Of a stretch of DNA of 64,000 nucleotides, positions 7,115 to 58,747 are shown one piece after another (the first letter of the stretch is position 1; each line of letters begins with the position of its first letter). The notes beneath the pieces are model-generated. The model was not told the origin of the DNA and searched no databases. It worked only from the letters and a program-made list of their open reading frames with translations. Made by a program: the position numbers and the translations under genes. The stretch lies in assembly GCA_964614065.1 (NCBI GenBank), contig CAZTJJ010000001.1, positions 9,028-73,027 of the forward strand. The letters are read 5' to 3'. The DNA is from an uncultured Thermotogae bacterium (GTDB lineage: Bacteria; Bipolaricaulota; Bipolaricaulia; M55B111).

Positions 7115-8047
7115 TTAAGTATTCCCAATAGACTGGAACAGTTTTCTGACGTCTTCGAAATGTTTTTCCATGCATTCTTCGCCAAGGGTAGACGCCTCCT
7201 TGACTTTATTAAAATCCAACCAGTTTAACTTAGCGACTTTCGGTTTGATTACTTCTAGTTTTCCCTCTAGTTTCTCTGTAGCTATGGTGTTTTTCGTGTT
7301 GAGCAGTTCTTTTTTTCTAATCTTGTTGGTTCTGTTGAATGTGTCTAAAGGGTTGTTTTTAGGGTCCTTGGATAAGTTGGTGCCTACATCTACAGCCAGT
7401 ACCGATTCTGCACCGAATTGTATTGCTGGCAAGATCGGTACTGGGTCAACGACCCCGCCGTCAACTAGTAAATGATTTTTCCATTTTACCGGGGGGATAA
7501 AGCCAGGAATGGCAGAGCTGGCTGCTGCTGCCCGATAAACTTTTCCTTCATTGATTATTACTTCTTTACCTGTTACAAGGTCAGTAGCAATAGCAGCGTA
7601 ATCTATAGGGAGGTCTTTGACCCAGGAATCCTTTGTTAGTAGTTTAAAGAACGTAAAAAATCGGGCCAGTTTGACTGGGGTCCTACCTGACTCACTGGCG
7701 GTCCAACGGTTTACCCCAATTCCCTGAGCTAGAGTTTTGCCGATTATCTTTTCCAATTCTCTTCGACTTTCCCTTGATATTTGTAGTATCTGATTGATAT
7801 CTAGCCTTTCTAGGATTTTTATCAAGTCGTCTGTATTGACCTTTCCCGCTGCGGCGGCCCCGATTACAGCTCCCATGCTTGTACCCACTATCAAGTCAGG
7901 AGTTAAGTCTGCGTGTTGTAACGCTTTTATGACACCCAGGTGGGCAAATCCCCGCGCGCCACCACCACCGAGGACCAGTGCGACTCCGGACTTGTGATTG
8001 TTGTTCTTGTCCTTGGCATTACTTTCTAATGTAAGTTTGTTAATCAT
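7115..8047 (-). CDS. Patatin-like phospholipase.
   Basis: 'GGGARGFAHLGV' oxyanion hole and the 'GTSMGA' nucleophile elbow; DGG motif is present. Confidence 0.85.
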   Translation of the reverse strand: MINKLTLESNAKDKNNNHKSGVALVLGGGGARGFAHLGVIKALQHADLTPDLIVGTSMGAVIGAAAAGKVNTDDLIKILERLDINQILQISRESRRELEKIIGKTLAQGIGVNRWTASESGRTPVKLARFFTFFKLLTKDSWVKDLPIDYAAIATDLVTGKEVIINEGKVYRAAAASSAIPGFIPPVKWKNHLLVDGGVVDPVPILPAIQFGAESVLAVDVGTNLSKDPKNNPLDTFNRTNKIRKKELLNTKNTIATEKLEGKLEVIKPKVAKLNWLDFNKVKEASTLGEECMEKHFEDVRKLFQSIGNT

Positions 8048-38629: not shown

Positions 38630-38705
38630 GCCGGTGTAGCTCAATCGGCAGAGCAGTCGACTTGTAATCGACAGGTTGCCAGTTCAAGTCTGGCCGCCGG
38701 CTCCA
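38630..38705 (+). tRNA. tRNA-Thr, anticodon TGT.
   Basis: 76 nt; acceptor GCCGGUG/CGCCGGC, anticodon stem-loop GUCGA-CUUGUAA-UCGAC, T arm GCCAG-UUCAAGU-CUGGC, then CCA. Confidence 0.9.
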
Positions 38706-38751
38706 GAGTTTGTTTGATCGTGACAAGGATAAGGTAGGTAATTGTTCGCTG

Positions 38752-38837
38752 GGAGGGGTACCGAAGTGGCCAAACGGAGCGGACTGTAAATCCGTTGGCA
38801 GGCGCCTTCGGGGGTTCAAATCCCTCCCCCTCCACCA
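38752..38837 (+). tRNA. tRNA-Tyr, anticodon GTA.
   Basis: 86 nt class II tRNA; anticodon loop CUGUAAA, long variable arm, 3' CCA. Confidence 0.88.
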
Positions 38838-38922
38838 TCCCCTAAAAATTGCTTCTGTAAGCAGTTTCTTGGCGGTTGAGACGTTGATAGTTTTGTAATA
38901 TCATTTTGTTATATTTGGTTAC

Positions 38923-38998
38923 GCCCGTGTAGTTCAGTCGGTAGAACATCCCGTTGGTAATGGGAAGGTCGCCGGTTCAATTCCGGCCGCGGGCTCCA
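38923..38998 (+). tRNA. tRNA-Thr, anticodon GGT.
   Basis: 76 nt; anticodon loop UUGGUAA; T arm GGUUCAAUUCC; CCA end. Confidence 0.9.
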
Positions 38999-39082
38999 AA
39001 ACCGCTTTAGTTAATAGTCGGCGGTTTAGCCATGATTATTTAAAGGTATTTTCATAATTATATAACTTCGAGGAGGTACACG

Positions 39083-40282
39083 ATGGCAAAAGAACATTTT
39101 GAGCGGGATAAGCCGCACCTGAATATTGGAACCATTGGCCATATTGACCATGGGAAAACTACGTTGACTTCGGCGATGACGAAACTATTGGCCAATATGG
39201 GATTGGCGGAAGGTAAAGAATTTAATGACATTGACAACGCACCTGAAGAACAGGAGAGAGGAATCACTATTGCTGTACGGCACGTCGAATATGAGACGGA
39301 AAATAGACACTACGCGCATATAGATGCTCCTGGTCACGCCGATTACGTCAAGAATATGATTACTGGTGCGGCCCAGATGGATGGGGCCATATTAGTTGTA
39401 TCAGCTGCTGATGGACCGATGCCACAGACTCGGGAACACGTTTTGTTGGCTAGACAGGTTGGGGTACCTGCTATGTTAGTGTTCCTCAACAAAACGGATA
39501 TGGTTGATGACCCCGACCTTATTGACCTAGTTGAAATGGAAGTTAGAGACTTACTTAATGAGTATGAGTTCCCGGGTGATGATGTGCCGATTATCAGAGG
39601 TTCAGCGTTGGAAGCTATGCAAAGTGATGGTGATCCGGAGGCAGAGGTCAACCAACCAATTTTGGAACTCCTTGAAACCCTGGACGAGTACATTCCATTA
39701 CCTGATCGAGACGAAGATAAACCATTTTTGATGCCTATTGAAGATGTATTTTCCATTAAGGGTCGAGGCACCGTTGCAACGGGACGTGTCGAGAGAGGGA
39801 AGATTACTCCTCAGTCTGAAATTGAAATAGTAGGTTTGCATGGCGATATTGTAGAAACAGTGGCCACGAGCCTTGAAATGTTCAACAAGACGATGGACGA
39901 GGCAATAGCCGGCGACAACGTTGGTGTTCTGTTACGAGGAATGGATAAAGAGGATATCGAACGGGGACAGGTGCTGGCAGACCCTGAAAGCATAACTCCA
40001 CATACACACTTTATGGCGGAAGTATACGTGTTAAGCAAAGATGAAGGCGGGCGTCATACACCGTTTTTCGATGGGTATAAGCCACAGTTTTATTTCCGGA
40101 CAACCGATGTGACAGGAAGTATTACTCTTCCTGAGGGTGTTGAGATGGTCATGCCTGGGGATAACGTTAATTTGGAAGCTGAGTTAATTGAGCATATTGC
40201 TATGGAAGAAGGTTTGAGATTTGCGATCCGTGAAGGTGGCAGAACCGTAGGTGCTGGCGTAGTTACGGAAGTATTGGAATAA
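39083..40282 (+). CDS. tuf: Elongation factor Tu.
   Basis: '[10 protein letters not shown]', 'DAPGHADY', 'NKTD'; 399 aa. Confidence 0.98.
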
Positions 40283-40298
40283 ACCGAGGCTAAGTTTC

Positions 40299-40448
40299 AT
40301 GCACAAGGAACAGGTAATTTTAGTATGTAGTGAATGTGGCAGGCAAAACTACCACACTGTTAAAAATCCACGTAACGATAAGGATAAATTGGAGTTAAAG
40401 AAGCACTGTAAGTGGTGTAAAGCCCATACAGTTCATAAGGAGAAGTAG
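40299..40448 (+). CDS. rpmG: 50S ribosomal protein L33.
   Basis: 49 aa, MHKEQVILVCSECGRQNYHTVKNPRNDKDKLELKKHCKWCKAHTVHKEK, a zinc-ribbon L33. Too short for the ORF track; found by manual translation. Confidence 0.85.
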   Translation: MHKEQVILVCSECGRQNYHTVKNPRNDKDKLELKKHCKWCKAHTVHKEK

Positions 40449-40476
40449 CCACGACAAGTGATTTTCTACACTATAC

Positions 40477-40552
40477 AGGCCTGTAGCTCAATTGGCAGAG
40501 CGCCGGACTCCAAATCCGAAGGTTGGGGGTTCAAGTCCTCCCGGGCCTGCCA
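40477..40552 (+). tRNA. tRNA-Trp, anticodon CCA.
   Basis: 76 nt; anticodon loop CUCCAAA; sits in the conserved position between rpmG and secE. Confidence 0.9.
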
Positions 40553-44491: not shown

Positions 44492-47400
44492 TTGAGGGAA
44501 CGAACGGATTTCAGCACGTACGGTGAAGCAATCGAACCACCCGATTTACTCAAAGATCAAAAAGACTCTTATACTAAATTTCTAACTACTGGCATTGAGG
44601 AAGCATTTAGCGAAGTTTCCCCCATCAAGGCGAGTAGTCGGACAAACTTCAGCTTAGAACTCCTCAATCCGTCCTTGGGAGATCTTCGAAGCTCCGTTAG
44701 TGATTGTGCTGATAAAGATCTGACCTACGATAGGCCGTTGCGGGTCGAGGCTCGCTTATCAGACGACGAAGGTGAGGTTGTTGCGGAGAATGAACTTTAC
44801 GTTGCGGATATACCCGTAATGACACCAAAGGGAACGTTTTTGATCAATGGTTCGGAAAACGTTTTGGTCAACGAATTGGCTCGAGCACCTGGTGTTTACA
44901 TTACAGCAGAGCGCAATAACCAGTATAAAGCACACATCCTACCAGATTACGGTGCATGGCTCGAATTGATTTTAGACGATAATAGGGAGAGAGTTTACGC
45001 TAATCTGGACAGGGAAGCTAAGGTTCCGATAACTGTGTTTCTGAGGGCTTTGGGGATGGATCAGGAGGATATATATTCCAAGTATAGTTTCGAGGTCAAC
45101 CCCGTTAAGGAAGCAGATTTGTTGGACTACGTGGACTACGTTTTGGCTGAGGACGTCACGAGCGATGATGGATTATTGATTAACGCTGGTGAGAAACTCA
45201 GAAAAGAGGACGTGGCCTTGATAGTCAAAGAGGGCACTAACGAGTCGATTTCTTTCTTGGATAGATATATTGGGAACACTCTGAAGAGAGATGACTTACG
45301 GACTAAAGAAGAAGCAATCAGGTTTATCTATGCCAAGTTGAGACCTACTGGTCGCGTTTCTACCACCAAAATGGAGAATTACATACACGGACTTTTCTTT
45401 GACGAAGAAAACTACCTTCTTTCAGAGGTTGGCAGGTTTAAAGCCAATAGCAAGCTTGGATTGGACGAAGAGACTTTAGCGTTAACAGAGAAGGATATCT
45501 TCAGGTCGCTCGATTTGCTGTTACAGGTTCCTTACAATCCAGAGTTATTAGATGAAAAAGATCATCTGGCAAATAAAGTGGTGAATTTGCCCGGCAAGGC
45601 AGCTAGAGCGGCTTTTGAAAGGGGTTTAAATAGAGTTGTCCGAACTACAGCCGATAAATTATCTAAGTTTAGTCTGGATGATGACGACACCCTTCGTGAC
45701 ATCGTCCCAACTAGGCCCGTTCAATCTTCGCTCAATCAGTTCTTTTACACGGGAAGGTTTTCCCAGTTTCTCGAGGAAACGAATGCTTTGGCAGAGCTGA
45801 CTCATAAAAGAAGACTTAATGCCTTAGGGGGTGGCTTGAGTCAACGCAGGGCGAAGCTAGAAGTGCGAGACGTTCACCCGTCTCATTATTCAAGGGTATG
45901 TCCAATTGAGACCCCCGAAGGACAAAATATTGGGTTGATAACCTCGCTGGCAAATTATGCCCATATCAACGAATATGGTTTTATTGAGGCGCCTTATCAA
46001 AAGGTTGAAGAAGGTCGAGTGACGGGAGAGATTGAATATCTCATGGCTGGCGAAGAAGAGCAGTACGGAATTGCACCATCGACAACGGAAGTAGATGAGG
46101 ATGGGTATCTGGTTGGCGATAGGATAGAGATCCGGACTGGCAAGGAAGATATCCAGCTTGGGAGACCGGAGGATGTGGATTTTGTCGGTGTGTCTCCGAA
46201 GGCAATTGTTGGAGCTTCTGCCTCGTTAATCCCTTTCCTGGAGCATGACGACGCAAATAGAGCGTTGATGGGTGCAAATATGCAGCGGCAGGCGGTTCCA
46301 TTATGTAACCCGGAGTCACCTTTTGTTGGAACAGGCATGGAAGCCAAAGCTGCCGAGGATTCTGGAATGCTGGTTATTGCTGAGAAGCCGGGGAAGGTCC
46401 AGTACGTGGACGCTGATAGAATCGACGTTGAAGAAGGCACTGACACCGTCAAATCCTATAATTTGAAGACGTTCACCCGCTCAAACCAGGACACTTTGGT
46501 TCACCAACGGCCTCTTGTTGAGAAAGGTGATAATGTAGAGAAAGGTGACGTGTTGGCTGATGGCTCTACAAGTGATCATGGTGAACTTGCCCTTGGCCGG
46601 AATCTCAGGGTTGCCTTCATGCCGTTCGAAGGTTACAACTACGAAGATGCAATAGTCGTATCGGAACGGTTGGTAAAAGAAGACCTCATGGATTCTATAC
46701 ATATAGAGGAATTCGAGGTCAAGGCAGAGGAAACGAAACTCGGTCCGGAAGAAATAACTGATGATATACCCAACATCAGTAAAGAAGACTTAAAAAATCT
46801 TGATTCACGGGGAGTAATTCGAGAAGGGACAGAAGTCGAAACAGGTGACGTGTTAGTAGGTAAAATAACTCCCAAAGGTGAATCTGAGCCGAGCCCCGAA
46901 GAAAAGATATTCCGGTCTATATTCGGAGAACAGGCCAGGAACGTCAAGGATTCGTCGCTCAAGCTCCCTCCCACAGCCGGCAAAGGAAAAATCATTAGAG
47001 TTAAGCGGTTTTCTCGTGATGAAGGAGACGAGCTGGATACGGGGATTAACGAGCTTGTAAAGGTTTACGTGGCCACCCGAAAGAAGATTTCGATTGGTGA
47101 TAAGCTGGCTGGACGACATGGAAATAAAGGTGTTATCTCCAACATACTGCCCGAGGAAGACGTGCCATTCCTGCCGGATGGCTCACCCGTGGACGTTTTA
47201 TTGAACCCACTGGGTGTTCCATCCCGGATGAACCTAGGTCAAGTGTTTGAAACCCACTTGGGCTGGTTGGCTTCTTTAAAAGATGAATACGTTTCTACAC
47301 CCGTGTTCGACGGAGCCAAAGAGGGGGAAGTGCTAGAGGAACTCTCAAAGGCCCAGGCACAAACAGGGTTAAGTGACGGTTCGAACGACGATGGCAAAGT

Positions 47401-47824
47401 GGTTCTGAGAGATGGTCGAACAGGAAAGCCTTTCGATAGGCCAATTACCGTGGGTTATATGTACGTTCTCAAGCTTGAACACATCGCTGACGAGAAGTTG
47501 CACGCCAGATCTACCGGCCCATATGCTTTAATTACTCAACAACCTCTCGGCGGTAAGGCACAGTTTGGTGGCCAGCGTTTTGGAGAAATGGAGGTATGGG
47601 CTCTTGAAGCTTACGGGGCGGCGAGTACCTTGCAGGAAATGCTGACCTTAAAGTCCGACGACATTCACGGCCGGACAAAATTGTACAAGGCGATATTAAA
47701 GGACGAACCCATGCCTAGACCAGGAATTCCCGAATCCTTTAAAGTGCTGGTCAGGGAGTTACGGGGCTTAGGGCTTGCTCCAAAAGCTCTAGATAAAACC
47801 GGGAATGAACTTGACCTGTCCTGA
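44492..47824 (+). CDS. rpoB: DNA-directed RNA polymerase beta subunit.
   Basis: 1110 aa; 'GGQRFGEMEVWALEAYGAA' and other Rpb2 signatures; complete C-terminus. Confidence 0.98.
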   Translation: MRERTDFSTYGEAIEPPDLLKDQKDSYTKFLTTGIEEAFSEVSPIKASSRTNFSLELLNPSLGDLRSSVSDCADKDLTYDRPLRVEARLSDDEGEVVAENELYVADIPVMTPKGTFLINGSENVLVNELARAPGVYITAERNNQYKAHILPDYGAWLELILDDNRERVYANLDREAKVPITVFLRALGMDQEDIYSKYSFEVNPVKEADLLDYVDYVLAEDVTSDDGLLINAGEKLRKEDVALIVKEGTNESISFLDRYIGNTLKRDDLRTKEEAIRFIYAKLRPTGRVSTTKMENYIHGLFFDEENYLLSEVGRFKANSKLGLDEETLALTEKDIFRSLDLLLQVPYNPELLDEKDHLANKVVNLPGKAARAAFERGLNRVVRTTADKLSKFSLDDDDTLRDIVPTRPVQSSLNQFFYTGRFSQFLEETNALAELTHKRRLNALGGGLSQRRAKLEVRDVHPSHYSRVCPIETPEGQNIGLITSLANYAHINEYGFIEAPYQKVEEGRVTGEIEYLMAGEEEQYGIAPSTTEVDEDGYLVGDRIEIRTGKEDIQLGRPEDVDFVGVSPKAIVGASASLIPFLEHDDANRALMGANMQRQAVPLCNPESPFVGTGMEAKAAEDSGMLVIAEKPGKVQYVDADRIDVEEGTDTVKSYNLKTFTRSNQDTLVHQRPLVEKGDNVEKGDVLADGSTSDHGELALGRNLRVAFMPFEGYNYEDAIVVSERLVKEDLMDSIHIEEFEVKAEETKLGPEEITDDIPNISKEDLKNLDSRGVIREGTEVETGDVLVGKITPKGESEPSPEEKIFRSIFGEQARNVKDSSLKLPPTAGKGKIIRVKRFSRDEGDELDTGINELVKVYVATRKKISIGDKLAGRHGNKGVISNILPEEDVPFLPDGSPVDVLLNPLGVPSRMNLGQVFETHLGWLASLKDEYVSTPVFDGAKEGEVLEELSKAQAQTGLSDGSNDDGKVVLRDGRTGKPFDRPITVGYMYVLKLEHIADEKLHARSTGPYALITQQPLGGKAQFGGQRFGEMEVWALEAYGAASTLQEMLTLKSDDIHGRTKLYKAILKDEPMPRPGIPESFKVLVRELRGLGLAPKALDKTGNELDLS

Positions 47825-48254
47825 TGATCAAACCGCGGTAGAAATTTCTGCTGGTGTAATATCTTATCGTTGTTTTTCTAATACCCACAAGTATTTGTTA
47901 ATAAAGCACGCTAATGGGGGGCATTGGAGTTTTCCGAAGGGGCACGTCGAAACTGGTGAAAGTTTAAAGGAAAGCGCAGTAAGGGAGCTATCCGAAGAAA
48001 CCGACCTGTCCGTAAAGAAATTTGTCAGTGGCTTTCGTGAGAAGGTAGCTTATCACATTCGCCGAGAAGGAGAAATTGTTAGAAAACGGGTAGTATATTT
48101 CTTAGCCAGGGTCACTGATGGAGAAGTGGAATTGTCTCCAGAACACGTCGATTTCAAGTGGCTTTCCCATGAAGAGTGTTTGGACGTGATTACGTACGAG
48201 GACGATCGAAGTCTATTGAACTCTGCAGAGCAGACGTTAATTAATCAAGCATAG
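47805..48254 (+). CDS. NUDIX hydrolase.
   Basis: Nudix box 'GHVETGESLKESAVRELSEETDL'; the ORF overlaps the rpoB 3' end by 20 nt. Confidence 0.8.
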   Translation: MNLTCPDDQTAVEISAGVISYRCFSNTHKYLLIKHANGGHWSFPKGHVETGESLKESAVRELSEETDLSVKKFVSGFREKVAYHIRREGEIVRKRVVYFLARVTDGEVELSPEHVDFKWLSHEECLDVITYEDDRSLLNSAEQTLINQA

Positions 48255-48273
48255 ACCAAGGTATTCCAAAAAG

Positions 48274-49146
48274 ATGAGCTTACCTGAACACGTGCACCTT
48301 ATAGATACAGGATTATTTGGTTACCAAAACTATGGAGCAAGTTATGTTATTGGTTGTTCCGAGCTTGCACTGGTAGATCCTGGTACATCAAATGCAGTTT
48401 CAGCAATAGAGAGCTGGTTTACGGAAGGCTCAGCTGACCTTTCAGACTTAGCCAGTATTGTACTTACTCACATTCATCTTGATCATGCTGGCGCAACTGG
48501 CGAGCTGGTCAGGATGGTTCCCGACCTAAAAGTTTACGTACATGAGCGCGGTGTTCCTTATCTTGTCGATCCAGCTGACCTGATTGAGAGCGTAAAACAA
48601 GCTACTGGCGACCGCTTTCCTCAGTATGGTACGTTAGCACCGGTACCTCAAAAAAATATCGTTCCTATTAAGAACGAAACCACCATTTCCATTGGGGATC
48701 TAGATCTCTTGGCTTTACCCACCTCAGGTCATGCTCCTCATCATATCTCCTATTTAGAGAAAGAATCTCGAATAATGTTTCCCGGTGATAGTGCCGGGCT
48801 TTACGTGGATCACCAGCTTATACCTACTACCCCACCTCCGTCCTTCAATCTGGAGGAAAGTATATCCAGTTTGGAAAAAATGAAGGAGAAAAGACCATCT
48901 ACGTTACTTTTCCCCCATTTTGGAACAAGAAAGAACCCACTCGAGTTGATGGACAAATACCAGGAACTTCTGGTGGATTGGGTTAATTCTATTCGGGATA
49001 AGTACTTAGCTGGAACCCCACGGGAGGAGTTAGATTCGTGGGTAGTCAGGAACTTTGACCAGTGGCTCGGTAATGGTTTTACCGAAGAAGAGCTGTTGAT
49101 GAATCTGTCCGGCGTGATACGATATCTCTCCTGGCGTAGTTCTTAA
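48274..49146 (+). CDS. MBL-fold metallo-hydrolase.
   Basis: 'HIHLDHAG' metallo-beta-lactamase motif, plus downstream His/Asp ligands. Confidence 0.8.
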   Translation: MSLPEHVHLIDTGLFGYQNYGASYVIGCSELALVDPGTSNAVSAIESWFTEGSADLSDLASIVLTHIHLDHAGATGELVRMVPDLKVYVHERGVPYLVDPADLIESVKQATGDRFPQYGTLAPVPQKNIVPIKNETTISIGDLDLLALPTSGHAPHHISYLEKESRIMFPGDSAGLYVDHQLIPTTPPPSFNLEESISSLEKMKEKRPSTLLFPHFGTRKNPLELMDKYQELLVDWVNSIRDKYLAGTPREELDSWVVRNFDQWLGNGFTEEELLMNLSGVIRYLSWRSS

Positions 49147-49168
49147 TTCAGGGGAGTCCGAGATCGAG

Positions 49169-51325
49169 ATGGCGAGAAAAAAGTTTGCTCGGGTCGCCGT
49201 TTTCTTACCTATAGACAAAATATTTGAATACTCTGTTCCCTCGGAACTGGCAGGAGAAGTGACCAAGGGTTCTATATGCGAGGTTCCATTTAGAGATAAG
49301 GCCGAACATGGTGTGGTTCTTGACCTCCAAGAACAAGGAAGTTATGAGGGAGAGTACAGCGAGATATCCCGGTTACTTTCTCCTGTTCCACTGTCTGATA
49401 ATTTAATTAAGCTGGCAGAATGGCTCTCCGAATCCACACTCACTCCATTAGGACAGGTTTTCAACCGCATGATTCCCGCTGATCTTTCTATTAATCCAAG
49501 GAAGAAAAAGGTTATAGGCATTAACGCTACCTTTTCACGGGTGAAAGATTTTGTCGAGGAATTCGGTTCCCGCGCGCCAAAGCAGGCCGCTTTATTGAAG
49601 TTGCTTTTATCGACCGATGGTTACATGACTAAACGAAGATTGTTAGATGAAGCAAGATGTTCTAGGTCTCCTATCGACTCTTTGATAGGAAAGGGATTGG
49701 TGCGTGAAAAGTCTGTGCCGAATCTCTCTGATGATTCCGTGTGGTCTGACTTAACCATCGCGCTTGCCAAAGGCAAAGGAAGTCAGGGGAAGGCGAGAAT
49801 TCGAACTAATACTTTTGGAGTGTTTACCGTTCCTGGAGAGTTGAGATCAAGGTTGCAGGTGTACCTAAACTGTATAGATAAGCTAGCATCTGAAGGTAGC
49901 GTGTTGGTGCTCGTTCCCAATACGTTCAGGGCTGAGGAAACCAAAAGGTTGATCAACAGAAAATTGAGTCTCAGCTGTTATGCTTACCATAGTGGGTTGT
50001 CAGCAGGAGAAATATCCAGGCGCTGGCAACTGGTCCAGTCTGGCCAACCAGACGTAGTTGTCGGGGTCATAAATGCGATCTATTTACCTTTTCCTGACCT
50101 TCGTGGGATAGTCGTGGACGGGGAGGGCGACAGGAATTATGCGTTAACTGAGCAGGACCCCAAAGGAAACCTTGTGGATATATCTCTGTATCGAGCGAGA
50201 TTAGAAGATGTCCCAATTCTACTCGGAGACTCGAGCCCTTCTGTATCCACGTATTATGCTTCCACTCGTGGAAAGGCAACTTCTTTAACTCAGTATTTCT
50301 TCCCTGAAGCCGCGGGAACAGCTGATTTAATCATCGAAGACACCAGCTATTTAGCTGGTACACGCAGTTTAGGTAACGTCATGAAAGAGAGGGTGCTTGA
50401 AACCATTTCCGAGGATGAGCCCGTCTTGTTGATCGGTGAGCGGACCAGGCAATCAAATGTCATAATATGTGGTGATTGTGGGAAAGTGATGAAGTGTCCA
50501 AATTGTGAGGTAGCCTTAAAATTTACTAGTTCGGGCCATTTTGGCTTTTGCCCATATTGTGGATATAAGGAGGAACTGGTAACTTGCCCGAACTGTGGCG
50601 GCGAAAACCTGAATTTCCTCGCAGCTGGTTTGGAAGAAGTTGAGTCAGAATTAACTGATTTTTTGCCGTCCGCTTCCATAGAGAGGTTCGATTCCAGAAC
50701 GAGTGGCCCATACCAGCTTTTCCAGCTAGTTCGTAAATTGTTGACCGGAGAGCTTGATGTATTGATGGGTACATGGGTTGCTGCTAGTTACTTTCTTTAT
50801 CACAAGGTAGGGCTTGTAGGATTACTGGATCCAGACTTAGTGTTAGACTGGTCGAGTTATCGCTCTACGGAAAGGTTTATCAAGAAGGTTCTTCGTGGAT
50901 TAGATTTGGGCGGAAAGGATGGTACTTTGGTTGCCCAGAGTTATCATCCTGATAATCCCGTAGTGAGTGCCGTGCGCTCGCGCCAGTGGAAAAGAATTTA
51001 TCAAGATGAGCTTGCTTCAAGACAAAGACTAGCCTACCCACCTTTTATTGATCTGGTTGAGGTTCACGTTAAAGCAACCGAAGAGGATGAAGTTAGGGCT
51101 ATTGCCACTGATTTGAAGGATAGAGTTGCCGGGCTGGCAGGGGTTAATGTTGTGCTTGGTCCGGTGAAACTACATCCGAATCCAAAAAGTGGCGAATACG
51201 AATTGAAGCTTTTGGTCAAAGTGAATTACTTAAGTAGCTTCTTGGAAAAATTACCGGAGGTCCTTCAGAGCATTAATCGTGATCAGATACGTTTAGTGCC
51301 AGTCTTTTCGAGATTTGACCCTTAG
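49169..51325 (+). CDS. priA: Primosomal protein N' (PriA) homologue with degenerate helicase motifs.
   Basis: 3'-BD N-terminus 'ARVAVFLPIDKIFEYSVP...GSICEVPFRDK'; Cys4+Cys4 zinc-binding insert 'CGDCGKVMKCPNCEVALKF...CPYCGY...CPNCGG'; PriA-like core 'LVLVPN...YHSGLSAGE...IVVDGEGDRNY'. The Walker A lysine and the DEEH box are absent. Confidence 0.8.
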   Translation: MARKKFARVAVFLPIDKIFEYSVPSELAGEVTKGSICEVPFRDKAEHGVVLDLQEQGSYEGEYSEISRLLSPVPLSDNLIKLAEWLSESTLTPLGQVFNRMIPADLSINPRKKKVIGINATFSRVKDFVEEFGSRAPKQAALLKLLLSTDGYMTKRRLLDEARCSRSPIDSLIGKGLVREKSVPNLSDDSVWSDLTIALAKGKGSQGKARIRTNTFGVFTVPGELRSRLQVYLNCIDKLASEGSVLVLVPNTFRAEETKRLINRKLSLSCYAYHSGLSAGEISRRWQLVQSGQPDVVVGVINAIYLPFPDLRGIVVDGEGDRNYALTEQDPKGNLVDISLYRARLEDVPILLGDSSPSVSTYYASTRGKATSLTQYFFPEAAGTADLIIEDTSYLAGTRSLGNVMKERVLETISEDEPVLLIGERTRQSNVIICGDCGKVMKCPNCEVALKFTSSGHFGFCPYCGYKEELVTCPNCGGENLNFLAAGLEEVESELTDFLPSASIERFDSRTSGPYQLFQLVRKLLTGELDVLMGTWVAASYFLYHKVGLVGLLDPDLVLDWSSYRSTERFIKKVLRGLDLGGKDGTLVAQSYHPDNPVVSAVRSRQWKRIYQDELASRQRLAYPPFIDLVEVHVKATEEDEVRAIATDLKDRVAGLAGVNVVLGPVKLHPNPKSGEYELKLLVKVNYLSSFLEKLPEVLQSINRDQIRLVPVFSRFDP

Positions 51326-51520: not shown

Positions 51521-53830
51521 ATGGATAGATTTAATACCAGTGGATTGTCGAATCCGGTTTATTGTTTCTTAATCTGCATATTCGTCTTCTCGTTGGGATA
51601 TGTAGTAGTTGGCCAATCTTACCGGCCAGTTGGAAAAGCCGATCCAATTATTGCTTATATACTTGATAGACAACAGCGAGTATCTAATTTATCTGACACT
51701 GAGCTAAAACTGGAATCTTTTATTGGTTCAATTGATCTGTACAGGGATAATTTATTTTTCCCTGCATCTGCCGGGATCAAAGGTACTTGCTCGCGAAACA
51801 GGGTTACGGAGAAGGAGCTTGACAAAACCGGTATGTATGACATTGGGGTAATAGCAAAATTTACAAAACCTGCCATATATGTAGATATGCCTGGATTGAC
51901 CATTACTTCCACCATGGGCAGAATTGCGACTGCGATAGCCAATGTAAATTCCATCTCATCTCTTCTGGCAGCCGACGATGTGGAATATCTTGCTTCCTCA
52001 CGACCCGTGTATCCCTTACTTACGGAGAGTGTACCTGCTGTTAATGCGGCGTCTTTACACAATACCCAGCCAATGGATCGTGGCGAAGGCGTGATTATTG
52101 GGTTCGTCGATTCCGGTATTGATTACGATCACCTGGATTTCCGCCGTGACGAGGACGGTCAAATCCCCGGAGAGGAGACGTCCCGGATTTCATTTATATG
52201 GGATCAGACGGATGGCTATGGGTTACCGCCAAATGGCTACAGTTACGGGAGTGAATACTCGAAAAGCCAGATAGAACAGGATATCCGCTCGGGATTGGGT
52301 CCTACAGAGGGAGCAGTAAGAGAGGTGGATGAAGAAGGTCATGGAACTCACATTGCCGGGATAGCTAGTGGGGATGGGTCTTCTTCAGATCTCGGGTTCG
52401 TGGGCATGGCTCCTGATTCATCTTTGATCTCCGTGAAGACGACTTTTTCAACAAGTTCTGTCCTGGATGGGGTTAGCTACATAGAACAAAAAGCTTACGA
52501 ACTCGGCCAGCCCGTGGTTGTTACAAATCTTTCATTGGGAACCCAGTACGGTCCACACGATGGAACGTCTTTATTCGAGGAAACATTGACGAATCTCTCT
52601 TCCGATAGCCACATTATAGTGGTTTCAGCCGGGAATTCCGGCGATAAAAATATTCATCTTGGAGTGGATACGTATCTAGGAATGAGTGAAGAGTACTCGA
52701 TCTACCTTCCAGTTTATAGTCCTTCTTCTGAAGTTTCCGATCATTTTAATCTCGATGGGTACTACGACAGTGGTGGTTATATAGAGGCCAAGGTAATTGG
52801 TCCAGATCAGGCTGAGACTGATTGGGTAGGTAAGGGTGAAGCGGCTTCGTTTGTAATGAGCAGCGGTAGCGTGCTTATCTCTAATGGCCCATCGACCATT
52901 ACTGGTGATACTCAATTGTTTGTTCGGGTTGGTGATTTACAACCAGATACCCCTCCTGATCCAGGCAATTGGCGATTGCGTATTCGGGCAGCTTCGTCGT
53001 CTCGATTGGATATGTGGGTAAGCAGTAATTTGCTCGGAAATGCCTGTAGGGATATCGAATTTTCGGAGGGCAATACGAAGATGACGATTGCAGAGCCAGG
53101 TAACGCTCGGGACGTAATAACGGTGGGCTCATTTAATACGAGAAATAGTTGGGACGGGAAATCCGTTTTCGGCTTTCCAGCTGGGAGCTTATCTGATTAT
53201 TCAAGCAAAGGTCCAACGAGGGATGGAAGAGTTAAACCGGATGTTTCTGCACCTGGGGCGTGGGTGGTATCTACTTTATCTGGATCAGCGAATGTTGATG
53301 ATTTTTATCTAGTTTCAGACGGCTTGCACTGGTCTATGGCTGGCACCAGTGTTTCTGCACCTCACGTCGCTGGTGCGACTGCTTTAGTTTGGTATGCAGC
53401 ACCAGAATCCACTGGTGCTGAAGTAACCGCTCGGCTATGTGAGACAACAGATTCCGAAGGGGTGTTCTTGCCCAATAACGAGTGGGGATGGGGTAAACTG
53501 AACGTGGGAAAAAGTGTATTTAGTTTCGGGATTTCAGGCGATGAACTGGATCAAGATCTGTGGATTCGAGCTACTCCAAACCCAGCTCAGGAATACGCGG
53601 ATCTTTTTTATAGTTATCCCGAAGGTGCTGCGAAGTTAAGGATTGAGATTTATAATGTTCTTGGCAGGGTTGTCAAGGAGATTGACGAAAGCGAATTGAC
53701 CGACGGTTTGAAGTATCGGTGGTATTTAAAAAACGATGATGGCATACCACTTGCAAACGGACTCTATATTTACTTGATCAGGATTGAAGATCGATGCTCC
53801 GATTTGAGTAGACTTGTGATAAGGAGATAA
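51521..53830 (+). CDS. Subtilisin-like (S8) serine protease with a C-terminal T9SS/Por-type sorting domain.
   Basis: S8 triad contexts 'GFVDSGID', 'HGTHIAG', 'GTSVSAPHVAG'; C-terminal ~80 aa 'NPAQEYADLFYSYPEGAAKLRIEIYNVLGRVV...NGLYIYLIRIE' resembles a Por_Secre_tail/FlgD-Ig CTD. Confidence 0.85.
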   Translation: MDRFNTSGLSNPVYCFLICIFVFSLGYVVVGQSYRPVGKADPIIAYILDRQQRVSNLSDTELKLESFIGSIDLYRDNLFFPASAGIKGTCSRNRVTEKELDKTGMYDIGVIAKFTKPAIYVDMPGLTITSTMGRIATAIANVNSISSLLAADDVEYLASSRPVYPLLTESVPAVNAASLHNTQPMDRGEGVIIGFVDSGIDYDHLDFRRDEDGQIPGEETSRISFIWDQTDGYGLPPNGYSYGSEYSKSQIEQDIRSGLGPTEGAVREVDEEGHGTHIAGIASGDGSSSDLGFVGMAPDSSLISVKTTFSTSSVLDGVSYIEQKAYELGQPVVVTNLSLGTQYGPHDGTSLFEETLTNLSSDSHIIVVSAGNSGDKNIHLGVDTYLGMSEEYSIYLPVYSPSSEVSDHFNLDGYYDSGGYIEAKVIGPDQAETDWVGKGEAASFVMSSGSVLISNGPSTITGDTQLFVRVGDLQPDTPPDPGNWRLRIRAASSSRLDMWVSSNLLGNACRDIEFSEGNTKMTIAEPGNARDVITVGSFNTRNSWDGKSVFGFPAGSLSDYSSKGPTRDGRVKPDVSAPGAWVVSTLSGSANVDDFYLVSDGLHWSMAGTSVSAPHVAGATALVWYAAPESTGAEVTARLCETTDSEGVFLPNNEWGWGKLNVGKSVFSFGISGDELDQDLWIRATPNPAQEYADLFYSYPEGAAKLRIEIYNVLGRVVKEIDESELTDGLKYRWYLKNDDGIPLANGLYIYLIRIEDRCSDLSRLVIRR

Positions 53831-53834
53831 TTAC

Positions 53835-54785
53835 ATGTTTAGCCGAAAAAGGATTGCGGGTAAATCGCTTGTCTTTTTCTTTATTTTACCCTTGCTGGTA
53901 GTTTGCTCTTCCCTGGCTGGATACTCTTCGTCCGGGGCAGGGGGAGGTTGTGATAACGTGGCCGCGATATTTGATCTGGGAATGGGAGCGCGTCCCATGG
54001 GGATGGGTGGGGCCTTTGCCAGTTTGGCTGATGATGAAAATGCAGTGTTCTATAATCCCGCTGCTCTCGCTTACCTTGATAGGGTCGGAGTTACGTCTCT
54101 TTGGTCCCCTCAATTTGGGTTGATCGATTACGGCGGTTTGGGGTTGGCCGGCAAGTATTTTGGATTAAACATGACTATTCTATCTTCAAGTCTCATACAA
54201 ATCCCTAACGAATTCAGCGCCCCTACAGGCGATAATTTTACTTATTTGAGCAGTGGAGGGGTTGTAGGTTTTGGCCTCCCCCTAATTGATAATTTGTCTT
54301 TTGGCGCCCGGTTGAAATACTATTATTCCCACTTATCTATTGACTCTGCAGGTGATGGGTTTGGATGGTCGGTGGAGCCTGCATTGCTAGCGAAAGGTGC
54401 TGGTTTTAGGTTTGGTCTTATTTTCGAAAATGCTCTTTCGAGTGATTTGAGGTATGGAAATTCTTATAAGGAAGAATTTAACCGGGCTATTCGATTGGGT
54501 GTTTCTTATCGGACTATGGTGACCACGAACGTCAGTGTGGTCATGTTGTCTGATCTCGAATCGGAGTTTGATGACTTGATCAACGCTGACCTTTCTTTCT
54601 TAAAGCCGTATGTGGGTATCGAGGTTTGGGCTGACTCTTTGGGTGTAAGAGCTGGTTACAATCAAAGTGGGGTGACGATTGGTTCGTCTATTGATTTAGA
54701 TTTTGTCAGGTTGGATTGGGCATATATTGCTTATCACACTGGGATTGATGGTAGTCATAAAGTGTCTCTAACTTATAGATTTTGA
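53835..54785 (+). CDS. Outer-membrane beta-barrel protein, FadL/PorV-like.
   Basis: Signal peptide; N-terminal 'GMGARPMGMGGAFASLADDENAVFYNPAALA' matches the FadL/PorV-family motif; alternating beta-strand pattern; C-terminal '...YRF' (the OMP terminal Phe). Confidence 0.55.
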   Translation: MFSRKRIAGKSLVFFFILPLLVVCSSLAGYSSSGAGGGCDNVAAIFDLGMGARPMGMGGAFASLADDENAVFYNPAALAYLDRVGVTSLWSPQFGLIDYGGLGLAGKYFGLNMTILSSSLIQIPNEFSAPTGDNFTYLSSGGVVGFGLPLIDNLSFGARLKYYYSHLSIDSAGDGFGWSVEPALLAKGAGFRFGLIFENALSSDLRYGNSYKEEFNRAIRLGVSYRTMVTTNVSVVMLSDLESEFDDLINADLSFLKPYVGIEVWADSLGVRAGYNQSGVTIGSSIDLDFVRLDWAYIAYHTGIDGSHKVSLTYRF

Positions 54786-57700
54786 TATACCGGTTGATTT
54801 TTGTGCATATAAGGTCTCGCTGGAATAAATTCTTCTTAATTTTTCTATATATTCCTTTTGTAATCACTCTACTTGTTGGTCTGGAGGCACACCCGCTTAC
54901 AGTTCAGACTGAGTCATTTAAAATTCAGTTGGCGGGAAAAAAGACCTGGGACCTCAAATTCGGGTTGGGTGACGGAACCAGCCTATCTAGAGTTGGTTAC
55001 CCTGACGACTCTTTTTCATTACAACAATCATTAGTCGTTGACCTATCAGGGGAACTTGGGGACTATTTTTCAGTTGCTGCCGATTTGAACGACAGCGAGC
55101 CAGGTTATTTACAGGAATTTAGATTATCTATGGATACGGACAACTGGGATGGTACTCTTGGGAACTTTTCCGTGGGTCAGAAGCATAATTTTACTGTTTA
55201 CAACAAAAAATTACTTGGATTGAGGCTCTCCGGCCAGGTGGAAGAATCCCAGCTTGAAACAGTATTGGGACGGCTCCAAGGTATATCTGAAACTGAGGTG
55301 TTTTATGGCAAAACTGCTGAGGCCGAGGTTACTTTCAGCCTCTATGAGACAGATGAGGGACTTGTAGAGAGAGGTTATAAGACAAATATTAAGGGCCTCG
55401 AGCATTTCGGCTTGGATCAGCAGTACGTGGAAGGATTTACGGATCCCACCCTGGATTTTCTTCTCTCTCAGGGGCTGTGGGATTTTCTGGCAGATTGGGG
55501 GTTTAGCTATTTAAAGGATACGATTGAAGTCGAAAACAGTAAAGAAGTTAGTTCAGGCCGGTTTAAAGTGGTTAATGTTAAGAAGGATTTTCTTATTTTA
55601 ACTGCCAGTAGGTTATCCCTCCTCCGATCCAGGATAAAAAGCTATATTTCAGACTATAACGAGGACCAAGCGGACGAGGAGCAAAAAGAGTACCCATTTA
55701 ACGAAAACACGAAATACGAACTGAATTTTCTCCGCCAGCTTCAAGAATACGTAAGGTTGGTAGTGGGGGATGAGAAACTGCAATTATCAAATTATGAGCT
55801 TTATAGGTTTTATTCGCTGGAAGAGACGAGCATTGAGGAGGATTCACTCTCTGTAGAAGTCTACAAAAATAACCAATGGACGTCGGTGGGATCTTTACCA
55901 AATTACAGTTATAAATTGTTTACGGATCAGGGAATAATTGATTTGGATTTCCCCCAGGATTTTTTCAATGAGCTGAAGAAGAAGAAGATAGAGGTGTCTT
56001 TCCAATACGAGATATCAGGAAACATGTACATGTTGGGATTTTCTGTGGCCCCCAATAGTGAACGCGTTTATCTAAATGGCGATTTACTTACCAAAAATAC
56101 GGATTACACGATCGACTATGAGACGGGCTCGTTGCTTGTGTTTAGAGAGGTTGGCCCCGATGATAAATTAAAAGTTGACTACGAGAGGGCCCGTGGAGGA
56201 ATTGGTGGTTATGCTGAGTACCCAAGAAACTTATATGGTTTCACCATGAAAATGAAGTCTGATTACGGGCTAGGACTTACTGTCAGCACTTTTCAAGCTG
56301 GTGACCAAGCTGGCGAAGATATATCCGCCGAAATCCCAATAATGCCTAATGTTCACACTGTTGCCGGTGTCGATGGTAAGTATCAACAGAATGGCTGGGA
56401 TATTAACTTTCAGATCAGCGGGAGCATTAACGAGTTTCCTGTTGGAGATAACCAGCGAAAGAACCTAACGAATAGAATTAACGATGTACTTAGCTTATCG
56501 GAGAGTGGTTATGACTTAACCTTATTTGCTCATCAAGATGGTTTTACAGTCCTAAAAGGGGAAGACTGGCTGTCATATGGTCCACAAGACGGGCTAGCTG
56601 GTACCTGTGTATCGGATGCTTTGTTGGTCGATAACTTGTTGGTACTTGCCGTCAGTTCGGGAATTACTACAATAGAGCTTGTCGGTGAATCGCCGTTGGA
56701 TAGGGCTGTCAACTGGGAAAGTTACTACGATCTGGACAACTTGGATGATTTAGAGGTTTTGGATCTGGCTACTGATGGTCAAACTGCTTGGGTAGCGACG
56801 GGTTCTGGTGTCTTTGGCGCTAGTTTGACCAATCTGGATGAGGATGATCCTTGGGGTCTGATAACTTCGAGCAAATTTGATGATCTTTCGGTTACTGAAA
56901 TTGAATATACCGGTGGTTATCTCTGGTTTGGAACTAGTCAAGGGTTATATCTGTTTGATCTTGAAACCGAACAGCTCGTTCAGGATGACCCGTTATTATC
57001 CCAAGAGGTCGTCGAGTTGAAGGCGCAGTTTGACGATGTTTTAGTGGTTACTACCGCTGGAATATCCAGGATTAATCAAAACTTGGAACCCGTGAATCTG
57101 TTAACCAGTTCTTCAGTGATGTCGTTGGCGGTAAGCGGGGAAGAAGTCTGGTACGGTACTGATAGTGGTTTTTCAAAAATTGGTTCTTCACATAGGTATG
57201 GGGAAAAAGAGATTACAGCTATATTGGCATCTGAGGAGGGAGTGTGGGCCGGTAGCAAAGGATATACATCTCAAGATAACTACGATATACTTCTTTATCT
57301 GTTAAGGGATAATTTAACAGAGTACAGTTCAACTGACACTTCTATACCAGGTAAGGATGAAAATCGTTATCGAAATATTGATCCGACTTTCCATACGGAT
57401 AGAGGTGTTGCAGCTAACGTGGATGTAACCAAGACTTTTACCCTCTGGTCGAGGGAGTTTTTCTTCTCTACGGGCACCGAGTACCGTCAACCAACGTACT
57501 CAGAAATAGGTAAATTTACAGAAGCAGATAACCTTATTGCTGGGGTCTCTCTGGGTGGTGAGCTATTCAAAGGATTTAACTTGGAAGCTAGCGGGGATTA
57601 CTCATTAACTTCGTTTTCAACTGAAGAAAACACCCTGGTTACAACCACGAGCTTGCTGGCTGAGTGGGATTGGTTTGTTAACAGTAGTGCCGAGGTTTAC

Positions 57701-58747
57701 TGGAAAGAGAAGCAGGATGAGACTAGGGAGATTGGTTTGAGCTTCCGGGGGATAAAAGGTCTCTGGGAGGATAGATTGAATTTGGAATTCGGCCTCTCCG
57801 GCGTAGATGAAATAGATCTGAAGGATGAAAGTTCTGATATATATGCTAGCCTTTCGTCGTCAGCTAATATTACCCTTATTGAGTCCGTCACTTTTAATCT
57901 CTCTTATTCGGTCCCCCTCGCCTTTGAACCATTTACGAAGGAGGAGGCAGAGACGTTGGTTTGGGATTTTGCTCTTTCTCGGGGGTTTCCTTTGGGATCG
58001 AATTATGGCTTAAAGGTGCAGTTGGATGATAAGGGACAGGTGGACGATTTGCTTACATCGGGCGAGGTGGATTTAACCAACCAAACAGAGCTTTCTTTAG
58101 ATTTTGATAAAATAGACTGGGGGCTTGCTACCCTCTCACCGTCTACTCTCTTTTCCTGGAAGTTTTCTGGTTCCGCTAACAAGATATCTGGAAAGATTAG
58201 TGGGAATCTTGGCGTGGATGATCTTAAAGCTCGCCTTTCATTAAGCAGGAAAGCAACATTACCTATTAATAGTCAGTTGGTCAAAATTAAGGACCAGCTC
58301 TCTGGAAAAGTTGACTATAGCCTGGGTCAGGTTACACCAACTTTGTCCTATGGTTTAGGGAGGACAAGTTTACAACACCCAACCTACGGTCACCAAACAC
58401 AATATACCGGCAACTTGGCTTTTTCATCTGGTTGGCGACCTTTTACGAACGTGCGAAACAAGGTAACAATTGGCATTGATTATGAATCTGAAAGTGATTT
58501 TTCTTACAGGCTTTTCGATCAAGTCGACTGGGAAATAATAACTAATCTTACCCCTCAATTTAGTTTCGATCTGGATTACGTGCCTTCTACAGAAGAGTTC
58601 GATTTTACTGCTAGGGCGGAGACTTCCTATCCCTTTTCTGATATGTGGGGTTTCTCGTTCACATCTGGGTTTAATTGGGGGATAAAGGAATCCGGTAATA
58701 TTTATACTAGTTTCTTTGGCGCTACGGGGTTGAAGGTTACATTCTAG
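54782..58747 (+). CDS. Giant hypothetical outer-membrane protein (1321 aa) with internal beta-propeller-like repeats and a C-terminal barrel-like region.
   Basis: N-terminal hydrophobic anchor; Reg_prop-like repeats ('GGYLWFGTSQGLYLFD', 'EEVWYGTDSGFSKI'); long amphipathic-strand C-terminal region ending 'GLKVTF'. Overlaps the upstream barrel gene by 4 nt. Confidence 0.6.
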   Translation: MIYRLIFVHIRSRWNKFFLIFLYIPFVITLLVGLEAHPLTVQTESFKIQLAGKKTWDLKFGLGDGTSLSRVGYPDDSFSLQQSLVVDLSGELGDYFSVAADLNDSEPGYLQEFRLSMDTDNWDGTLGNFSVGQKHNFTVYNKKLLGLRLSGQVEESQLETVLGRLQGISETEVFYGKTAEAEVTFSLYETDEGLVERGYKTNIKGLEHFGLDQQYVEGFTDPTLDFLLSQGLWDFLADWGFSYLKDTIEVENSKEVSSGRFKVVNVKKDFLILTASRLSLLRSRIKSYISDYNEDQADEEQKEYPFNENTKYELNFLRQLQEYVRLVVGDEKLQLSNYELYRFYSLEETSIEEDSLSVEVYKNNQWTSVGSLPNYSYKLFTDQGIIDLDFPQDFFNELKKKKIEVSFQYEISGNMYMLGFSVAPNSERVYLNGDLLTKNTDYTIDYETGSLLVFREVGPDDKLKVDYERARGGIGGYAEYPRNLYGFTMKMKSDYGLGLTVSTFQAGDQAGEDISAEIPIMPNVHTVAGVDGKYQQNGWDINFQISGSINEFPVGDNQRKNLTNRINDVLSLSESGYDLTLFAHQDGFTVLKGEDWLSYGPQDGLAGTCVSDALLVDNLLVLAVSSGITTIELVGESPLDRAVNWESYYDLDNLDDLEVLDLATDGQTAWVATGSGVFGASLTNLDEDDPWGLITSSKFDDLSVTEIEYTGGYLWFGTSQGLYLFDLETEQLVQDDPLLSQEVVELKAQFDDVLVVTTAGISRINQNLEPVNLLTSSSVMSLAVSGEEVWYGTDSGFSKIGSSHRYGEKEITAILASEEGVWAGSKGYTSQDNYDILLYLLRDNLTEYSSTDTSIPGKDENRYRNIDPTFHTDRGVAANVDVTKTFTLWSREFFFSTGTEYRQPTYSEIGKFTEADNLIAGVSLGGELFKGFNLEASGDYSLTSFSTEENTLVTTTSLLAEWDWFVNSSAEVYWKEKQDETREIGLSFRGIKGLWEDRLNLEFGLSGVDEIDLKDESSDIYASLSSSANITLIESVTFNLSYSVPLAFEPFTKEEAETLVWDFALSRGFPLGSNYGLKVQLDDKGQVDDLLTSGEVDLTNQTELSLDFDKIDWGLATLSPSTLFSWKFSGSANKISGKISGNLGVDDLKARLSLSRKATLPINSQLVKIKDQLSGKVDYSLGQVTPTLSYGLGRTSLQHPTYGHQTQYTGNLAFSSGWRPFTNVRNKVTIGIDYESESDFSYRLFDQVDWEIITNLTPQFSFDLDYVPSTEEFDFTARAETSYPFSDMWGFSFTSGFNWGIKESGNIYTSFFGATGLKVTF

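Follow-up and report, generated by a model that had tools for sequence, protein, structure and literature searches.

A candidate export-and-anchoring module in Bipolaricaulota related to the outer-membrane core of type IX secretion

Three adjacent genes, called here P1, P2 and P3, were analysed in a 64,000-nucleotide stretch of DNA (the window, meaning this whole stretch; contig CAZTJJ010000001.1 of assembly GCA_964614065.1), deposited under the name of an uncultured Thermotogae bacterium and assigned by GTDB to the Bipolaricaulota. They encode a protease of family S8, a small outer-membrane beta-barrel and a giant outer-membrane protein, and our analysis suggests that the operon is quite probably a compact module for the export and anchoring of surface proteins, dependent on a C-terminal domain (CTD) and related to the outer-membrane core of the T9SS (type IX secretion system). 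The gene order, the relations of family and fold, the sharing of the CTD as a tag by different proteins and the pairing of tag and carrier genes were seen directly.

The protease, its C-terminal domain and the two outer-membrane proteins

P1 matches the Pfam family Peptidase_S8 (PF00082) with an E-value of 8e-42, and the catalytic residues D197, H274 and S610 do not vary among 50 orthologues; public orthologues carry the name 'S8 family serine peptidase'. Judged from its sequence, P1 looks like an active S8 subtilase with an Asp-His-Ser triad, and the subtilase proposed for the first gene in the initial annotation is supported by both the family match and the triad.

The last 85 or so residues of P1 appear to be a type-A-like CTD of the T9SS. 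Taken alone, this region scores 26.3 bits with TIGR04183 (cutoff 23), while within full-length P1 the score is 20.9 bits; with Pfam PF18962, P1 stays under the 27-bit cutoff and the FlgD_ig score is comparable. A family profile was built from 23 diverse copies of the domain. TIGR04183 was matched by 22 of these 23 CTDs (best 3.8e-12), the C-termini of PorU and PorZ by 20 and 15, respectively, and the Pfam families FlgD_ig, Por_Secre_tail and CHU_C by 20, 15 and 13; the type-B model TIGR04131 was matched by 2, weakly. Against all PDB sequences, the profile found at the top the CTD of PorU (6za2, residues 1056-1153 of 1156, E 7e-12), followed by the CTD of PorZ (3.7e-6) and, at lower ranks, by FlgD (7e-5) and by CTDs of bona fide substrates within SprA complexes (8glj_D, 4.6e-4). 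The consensus of the family is PNPA..F.Y.LP.G...A.L.VYD..GR.VF...WDL.D..G..LANGLY.Y.......S.V.RLVI.R, then the stop, and the domain ends 0-2 residues from the C-terminus in 85 open reading frames (ORFs), whose unrelated passengers include S8, M6, PKD and cohesin-PKD proteins. The initial annotation had suggested a T9SS-type sorting domain, unless the region resembled only generic Ig or FlgD folds; the score of the isolated CTD against TIGR04183 and the rank of PorU ahead of FlgD speak for the sorting domain. A FlgD-type flagellar domain was rejected as the identity of the CTD, which is strictly C-terminal on secreted proteins and paired with PorV-like genes; the fact that no flagellar genes were found by Hao et al. 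also counts against it.

P2 had been described as a FadL/PorV-family barrel, and our searches place it with PorV/PorQ instead of FadL. The PorV/PorQ family model NF033709 is matched over the full length with an E-value of 1.8e-20 (73.8 bits, cutoff 90), while the FadL family model Toluene_X gives 0.016; for the BamG model NF053685 the value is 0.015, and for the PorV equivalog NF033710 the score is 15.5 bits against a cutoff of 250. The PorV/PorQ and 'PorV2' models are matched by 53/53 P2 relatives, PorQ by 41, PorV by 38 and PorP/SprF, weakly, by 12. The profile of these 53 members, searched against the PDB, aligned end to end with Flavobacterium johnsoniae PorV (6h3i_F, 8e-20), and the next match was a FadL homologue (3dwo, 7e-5). 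The AlphaFold2 (AF2) model of P2, with a predicted local distance difference test score (pLDDT) of 89.1, shows a barrel whose N-terminal part is a helical hatch. Its top Foldseek match is again PorV (8gl6_F, E 5.9e-13, template modelling score, TM, 0.71), with FadL and TodX (about 1e-8, TM about 0.57; FadL 5.6e-9, TM 0.57) and BamG chains (~1e-6) behind. The nearest solved relative of P2 is thus PorV, both by sequence profile and by predicted fold. Clustering with fatty-acid transporters, which would have spoken against the initial annotation, was not what we found, and a FadL-type fatty-acid transporter was rejected because the PorV matches are far stronger.

Concerning P3, the overall fold predicted by the model is nearest to the SprA translocon. 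The AF2 model comprises residues 122-1321, with 84 N-terminal residues left outside, and is confident (pLDDT 87.3). From N- to C-terminus it contains 5 long strands, a mixed alpha/beta part including a beta-sandwich, 4 long strands, 28 short strands and 25 long strands, the last group occupying positions 751-1198 of the modelled fragment according to DSSP. The short strands make up a seven-bladed propeller, and the propeller repeats and barrel-like C-terminus recognised earlier in the giant protein are therefore borne out by the model. DSSP counts 34 long strands in the fragment (5 + 4 + 25); for the SprA barrel 36 strands are described (PMC10994853). In Foldseek searches against the PDB the top three matches are all SprA (8gl6_A, 8gl8_A and 6h3i_A, with E-values from 2.7e-19 to 8.9e-17 and TMq 0.39-0.40), and the next one (3.8e-11) is about eight orders of magnitude weaker; those that follow SprA include Bacteroides sensor propellers (~4e-11), LptD (~3e-9, TMq 0.15) and PorZ (5m11, 6e-9).

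A relationship with SprA also emerges at the sequence level, in one region. TIGR04189 (SprA) matches P3 with 26.8 bits (cutoff 200, E 7e-7) over residues 400-469 only, corresponding to model positions 582-653, and it is matched by 30 of 33 P3 relatives (best 1.2e-10), PorZ being the sole other family matched. A sub-profile of residues 385-560 (A6), searched against 177,635 PDB sequences, found SprA alone (E 1.8e-5), with the best stretch, of about 110 residues, joining profile positions 18-128 to SprA 678-786. With the whole-length P3 profile, matches in the PDB were confined to propellers, SprA being absent; among them are those of Bacteroides hybrid two-component sensors (4a2l, E 1e-22), and P3 itself matches PorZ_N_b_propeller at 0.0096. 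The comparison with SprA/Sov and the structure prediction suggested in the initial annotation thus indicate SprA as the best match, in fold and in sub-profile. Since P2 and P3 remain under the curated cutoffs of NCBIfam, they should be considered distant relatives of PorV and SprA, and not equivalogs. The family of P3 ranges from about 1,260 to 1,630 amino acids, P3 having 1,314-1,321, versus about 2,300-2,400 for SprA. The terminal Phe that had been noticed on the barrel and on the giant protein was confirmed on both (...SLTYRF in P2, ...GLKVTF in P3); no fewer than 90% of P3 relatives keep it, and among P2 relatives it is the consensus residue.

The motif of the P3 sandwich, 'VYLNG..L..g.DYtIDYetG', was also observed repeated 4-7 times in three proteins of 1300-1800 amino acids from a library of 1.84 billion proteins (P0231, P0272 and P0273), and it matches the phage distal-tail/tail-tube models TIGR02217 and NF052337.

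Linkage of the three genes across related genomes

A scan of species-representative genomes returned 170 P3 relatives, of which the best 80 loci were analysed. All ORFs of these loci were scanned with our own hidden Markov models, and linkage was counted on the 63 loci with sufficient upstream DNA. P1, P2 and P3 are real genes: each has many homologues, and their order is kept in dozens of related genomes. The order S8, PorV-like, giant, with the pair directly upstream of the giant, occurs in 48/63 loci, and in 55 of the 63 a PorV-like gene is at most 6 kb away and a CTD protein at most 8 kb away; additional pairs of CTD-protein and PorV-like genes adjoin the giant in 13 loci. A PorV-like gene directly follows the gene of a CTD protein in 76 cases out of 83, a pairing from which one would expect each cargo to stay anchored permanently on its own carrier. 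Besides the S8 protease, the cargo includes cohesin-PKD proteins (350-440 amino acids), PKD proteins of ~1000 amino acids, fervidolysin-like S8-PKD proteins and one M6 peptidase.

The dedicated secretion and anchoring unit for one surface protease, as proposed in the initial annotation, is consequently supported as a module and too narrow in its scope, since the pairing of tag and barrel is found with other surface proteins of related genomes as well. The locus with the most divergent giant (L089, 1628 amino acids) has S8-CTD and PorV-like genes ~2 kb upstream, with the triad kept, and four loci syntenic with the window (L011, L014, L016 and L017, at positions of about 7700-8000 in each) read priA, giant, manC, with the giant retained and the S8/PorV-like pair missing. 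For these reasons the giant can be regarded as the constant element and the cargo-carrier pairs as cassettes. The window has the S8 and PorV-like pair and these four loci lack it, the site being precisely the same in these close relatives.

Some further arrangements were observed. Two full-length copies of the giant stand on different contigs of one metagenome-assembled genome (MAG; CAZDMI01, loci L015 and L016). In three loci from MAGs labelled 'Bacillota' (L076, L078 and L079) the module is present with a fervidolysin-like S8-PKD-CTD or an M6-PKD-CTD cargo, and in two of them the PorV-like gene is upstream of the cargo gene. Among loci labelled Fraserbacteria, L003/L004 have the giant alone, beside ftsH and dxr, as in the Acetothermia locus L001, and in L038 the giant is followed by two convergent cohesin-PKD-CTD/PorV-like pairs.

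Proposed mechanism, rival explanations and known systems

Bipolaricaulota are reported to be diderm, with a toga-like outer membrane (PMC6092417; bioRxiv 10.1101/2025.11.21.689855), so that outer-membrane barrels are plausible in this host. In Flavobacterium, PorV docks over the lateral opening of the SprA barrel, which has an extracellular cap, with the substrate CTD held on the PorV loops in the pore, and PorV and substrate are pushed out sideways by an input of energy (PMC10994853). Cargo of type B stay on carriers dedicated to them (PMC12635249; PMC12618676), and on the surface PorU is held by PorV and PorZ by PorQ, the CTD of PorZ being stated to be uncleaved (PMC8545088). The combination seen here, a type-A-like tag with type-B-like genetics (one carrier per cargo), leads us to propose passage by Sec, capture of the CTD and lateral release and display; all steps of transport, binding and anchoring are inferred by us. 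P1, as an active S8 protease, would cross the inner membrane by Sec, and its beta-sandwich tag would be recognised in or at P3 by the loops of P2 docked on P3. The P1-P2 complex would then exit the P3 channel sideways into the outer membrane, where P1 would be displayed permanently on the toga-like surface, held by P2 through the uncleaved tag; P1 on P2 is modelled here on PorU held by PorV and on type-B cargo held by PorP/SprF carriers. In related genomes the same channel might serve PKD, cohesin and other protease cargo, with one carrier gene for each.

Several observations weigh against the export-and-anchoring reading. The scores of P2 and P3 are under the curated cutoffs, P3 is half as long as SprA, the TMq of 0.40 between them is modest, and significant sequence similarity is confined to one region; moreover, tail proteins of phages and unrelated repeat proteins contain the P3 beta-sandwich too. 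The four loci in which the giant stands between priA and manC with no S8/PorV-like pair belong here too. Ejection of the carrier in canonical T9SS requires an energy chain driven by the proton-motive force (GldLM and GldKN), and in the scanned parts of the window no PorK/L/M/N (GldK/L/M/N), PorU, PorT, PorW/SprE, Plug or PPI was seen; nor did the gene calls surrounding six related loci contain PorK/L/M/N, PorU, PorT or PorW/SprE. Finally, PorV-like barrels may serve other purposes, for example BamG in the BAM complex (beta-barrel assembly machinery) of Bacteroidota, and P2 has weak matches to BamG.

One could also suppose that P1 is a C-terminal signal peptidase, an analogue of the PorU sortase seated on a PorV-like partner at the surface and removing or processing the CTDs of other exported proteins, with the P3 propeller acting as a PorZ-like, ligand-presenting element. 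We regard this as unlikely, even if the protease is the one cargo nearly always encoded with giant and carrier (in the 48 loci above and in L089, and as fervidolysin-like S8 or M6 in the loci of 'Bacillota' MAGs), its triad is invariant, the best solved matches of the CTD profile are the CTDs of PorU itself and then of PorZ, and the propeller of P3 shares its class with the PorZ and BT4663 propellers (PMC8545088). The protease is not always of one class (two S8 subtypes and M6 occur), a variation more typical of a cargo, and four syntenic loci have the giant with no protease at all. Other cargo have dedicated carriers, on which the CTD normally stays uncleaved (PMC12635249), and PorU belongs to the cysteine peptidases of family C25, not to S8. 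A lipopolysaccharide (LPS) acceptor is not expected either, because the first closed Bipolaricaulota genome is without LPS genes (PMC6092417).

Protein utilisation would be a different role for the locus, in which P1 digests external protein and the products, peptides or hydrophobic compounds, are taken up by P2 as a FadL-like channel and by P3 as a giant porin. Bipolaricaulota have been described as fermenters, with amino acids in the metabolic model (PMC6092417), the toga of strain J31 was proposed to take up hydrocarbons (bioRxiv 10.1101/2025.11.21.689855), and the fold of P2 is of the FadL type; yet the PorV match of P2 exceeds those to FadL homologues by about 15 orders of magnitude and the best match of P3 is a secretion translocon. 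Non-enzymatic PKD/cohesin-CTD proteins are likewise paired with PorV-like genes, and a common C-terminal tag next to a barrel gene follows the logic of a carrier and not that of uptake, so that we give this role very little credit. Hardly probable, in our opinion, is also a function in biogenesis of the outer membrane or toga, with P2 and P3 as structural or assembly factors (BamG-like, LptD-like or anchoring the S-layer) and P1 as a maturation protease of the envelope. The matches reported above to LptD (Foldseek, P3) and to BamG (Foldseek and NF053685, P2), the near-universal presence of the giant in the phylum among housekeeping genes and the S-layer found on the toga of strain J31 (bioRxiv 10.1101/2025.11.21.689855) would agree with it. 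Those matches are far weaker than the ones to SprA and PorV, however, and why a CTD tag is shared and strictly paired with PorV-like genes would be left unexplained. An LptD-like role for P3 was rejected on the same weakness of the matches and on the lack of LPS genes in the first closed genome of the phylum (PMC6092417).

Returning to the export-and-anchoring module, its resemblance to the T9SS outer-membrane core can be set against three known systems. As with SprA/Sov and PorV of F. johnsoniae (6H3I, 8GL6, 8GL8), the predicted folds of P3 and P2 are nearest to SprA and PorV, one region of P3 has SprA-specific sequence similarity, the cargo bears a type-A-like CTD, and both barrels end with the usual C-terminal Phe of outer-membrane proteins. 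P3, however, has ~1,315 residues versus ~2,400 in SprA and contains an inserted seven-bladed propeller, whereas no propeller matches were returned within SprA; in addition P2 and P3 are under the curated family cutoffs, the genes of translocon and carrier are co-operonic, and the host belongs to a phylum outside Bacteroidota and the Fibrobacterota-Chlorobiota-Bacteroidota (FCB) group, whose first closed genome is without LPS genes. The F. johnsoniae type-B system of CTD cargo and PorP/SprF carriers (PMC12618676, PMC12635249) has in common with the module a tagged cargo gene followed directly by its own small barrel gene (76/83), but here the tag is type-A-like (22/23 with TIGR04183, 2/23 weakly with TIGR04131) and the carriers score as PorV/PorQ, with only 12/53 matching PorP/SprF, weakly. 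The PorU-PorV and PorZ-PorQ attachment complex of Porphyromonas gingivalis is similar in having a surface peptidase with a retained CTD on a PorV-family barrel (proposed for P1-P2), in the presence of a BT4663/PorZ-type propeller and in the CTDs of PorU and PorZ being nearest to our profile; it differs because PorU is a C25 cysteine peptidase and P1 a serine peptidase of family S8, because the propeller forms part of the giant barrel protein instead of being a separate CTD protein, and because anionic LPS (A-LPS) is not expected. Judged by the curated cutoffs, by the size of its proteins and by the phylum of its host, the module would not qualify as a canonical SprA/PorV T9SS, to whose outer-membrane core it nevertheless appears similar.

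A stronger interpretation, which we consider doubtful, is that Bipolaricaulota possess a minimal, self-contained and ancestor-like T9SS, with a half-size SprA-like channel, a built-in propeller of PorZ type, PorV-like carriers for each cargo, an S8 CTD peptidase in place of PorU and an LPS-free toga, working without the PorKLMN/GldKLMN energy chain. If this were true, the core formed by translocon, carrier and tag would be older than the gliding-motor coupling of Bacteroidota and workable without it.

Locus layout, host and significance

The features of the locus are collected in Table 1. The initial annotation had placed a 4-nt gap between P1 and P2 and a 4-nt overlap between P2 and P3. The three same-strand ORFs and the first spacing hold, with AAGGAG 8 nt 5' of the P2 ATG; the overlap requires the TTG at 54782 as start of P3 and was not sustained. 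P3 probably starts at the GTG at 54803, with a gap of 17 nt after P2, because the alignment with its closest homologue (P0002, 81% identical, 1314 amino acids) begins there, because another gene call, on a contig with an identical P2, lets the downstream gene begin at the position that corresponds to it, and because the equivalent gaps in orthologous loci are of 10-18 nt. With either start the three genes are tightly linked. Scans with promoter and terminator consensus sequences gave no signal over the shuffled background in the region, whose GC content is unremarkable.

Table 1. Coordinates of the P1-P2-P3 locus in the window
Feature	Coordinates	Strand	Basis
P1, secreted S8 subtilase, 769 aa, with hydrophobic N-terminal signal/anchor	51521..53830	+	Pfam, orthologues
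P1 CTD (putative type-A-like), residues ~685-769, last letters NGLYIYLIRIEDRCSDLSRLVIRR	53573..53827	+	TIGR04183, family profile
AAGGAG ribosome-binding site of P2, within the 3' end of P1	53821..53826	+	sequence read directly
P2, PorV/PorQ-family outer-membrane beta-barrel, 316 aa, putative CTD carrier/anchor	53835..54785	+	NF033709, AF2
P3, giant SprA-like outer-membrane protein, probable GTG start, 1314 aa	54803..58747	+	homologue alignment
P3, longest ORF, TTG start, 1321 aa	54782..58747	+	ORF list
P3 beta-sandwich, residues 400-469 (TTG numbering)	55979..56188	+	TIGR04189 match
P3 inserted seven-bladed beta-propeller, residues ~560-848	56459..57325	+	AF2/DSSP, profile, Foldseek
P3 C-terminal 25 long beta-strands, Phe at end	57395..58744	+	DSSP on model

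The neighbouring genes in the window are of the housekeeping kind (rpoB, fusA, dnaK, groEL, topA and a hydrogenase), and the ORFs flanking the operon are presumably priA upstream and manC/pgi downstream, from a reading of the translations alone. Given the unremarkable GC content and the synteny kept among housekeeping genes, a mobile element or horizontally acquired island was rejected. In the part at 44492-51325, which begins with rpoB (1110 aa), nudix-like, MBL-fold-like and priA-like genes, as read from the translations, come next instead of rpoC, and no ORF of the size of rpoC is present elsewhere in the window; the same order rpoB-nudix-MBL-priA is found in the relatives L011, L014, L016 and L017. 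Upstream of the ribosomal-protein/rpoB region, at 38630-40552, there is a tRNA-Thr/Tyr/Thr cluster, an ORF of ~400 aa (39083-40282) and a tRNA-Trp, an ordinary arrangement; the position of this ORF is the usual place of tuf.

Nearly all P3 relatives belong to MAGs of Candidatus Bipolaricaulota/Acetothermia, with few from Fraserbacteria and few labelled 'Bacillota'; Bipolaricaulota lie outside the FCB group. Several loci (L008, L010, L011, L014-L018, L061 and others) carry the titles 'uncultured Thermotogae' or 'Thermotoga sp.', and these MAGs have the gene order and 44-47% identical proteins in common with Bipolaricaulota MAGs. As the 'uncultured Thermotogae' MAGs from ENA have the gene order of the window, they are probably of the same lineage, and the Thermotogae/Thermotoga labels on MAGs such as L008, L010 and L061 are probably wrong.

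We found in the literature no published description of such a module in Bipolaricaulota/Acetothermia, and T9SS is described in reviews and structural papers as confined to Bacteroidota or to the FCB superphylum (as in PMC10202324, PMC12398890). NCBIfam lists among its models a 'putative type IX sorting system protein PorV2', matched by the relatives of P2, so that curators may already suspect related systems elsewhere. In that literature T9SS is seen as an invention of Bacteroidota/FCB tied to gliding motility, and a module conserved across a deep-branching phylum outside FCB would push the origin of its outer-membrane core well beyond Bacteroidota, in keeping with a proposed origin of carrier-based export as a means of mounting surface proteins. 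As a much smaller channel, P3 would be convenient for work on structure and mechanism, and the module raises the question of how carriers are ejected without the known motor. In public annotation all P3 relatives are named 'hypothetical protein', and for these proteins, so labelled in every Bipolaricaulota genome examined, the module provides a first functional hypothesis; it also suggests how Bipolaricaulota may decorate their toga with proteases and adhesins.

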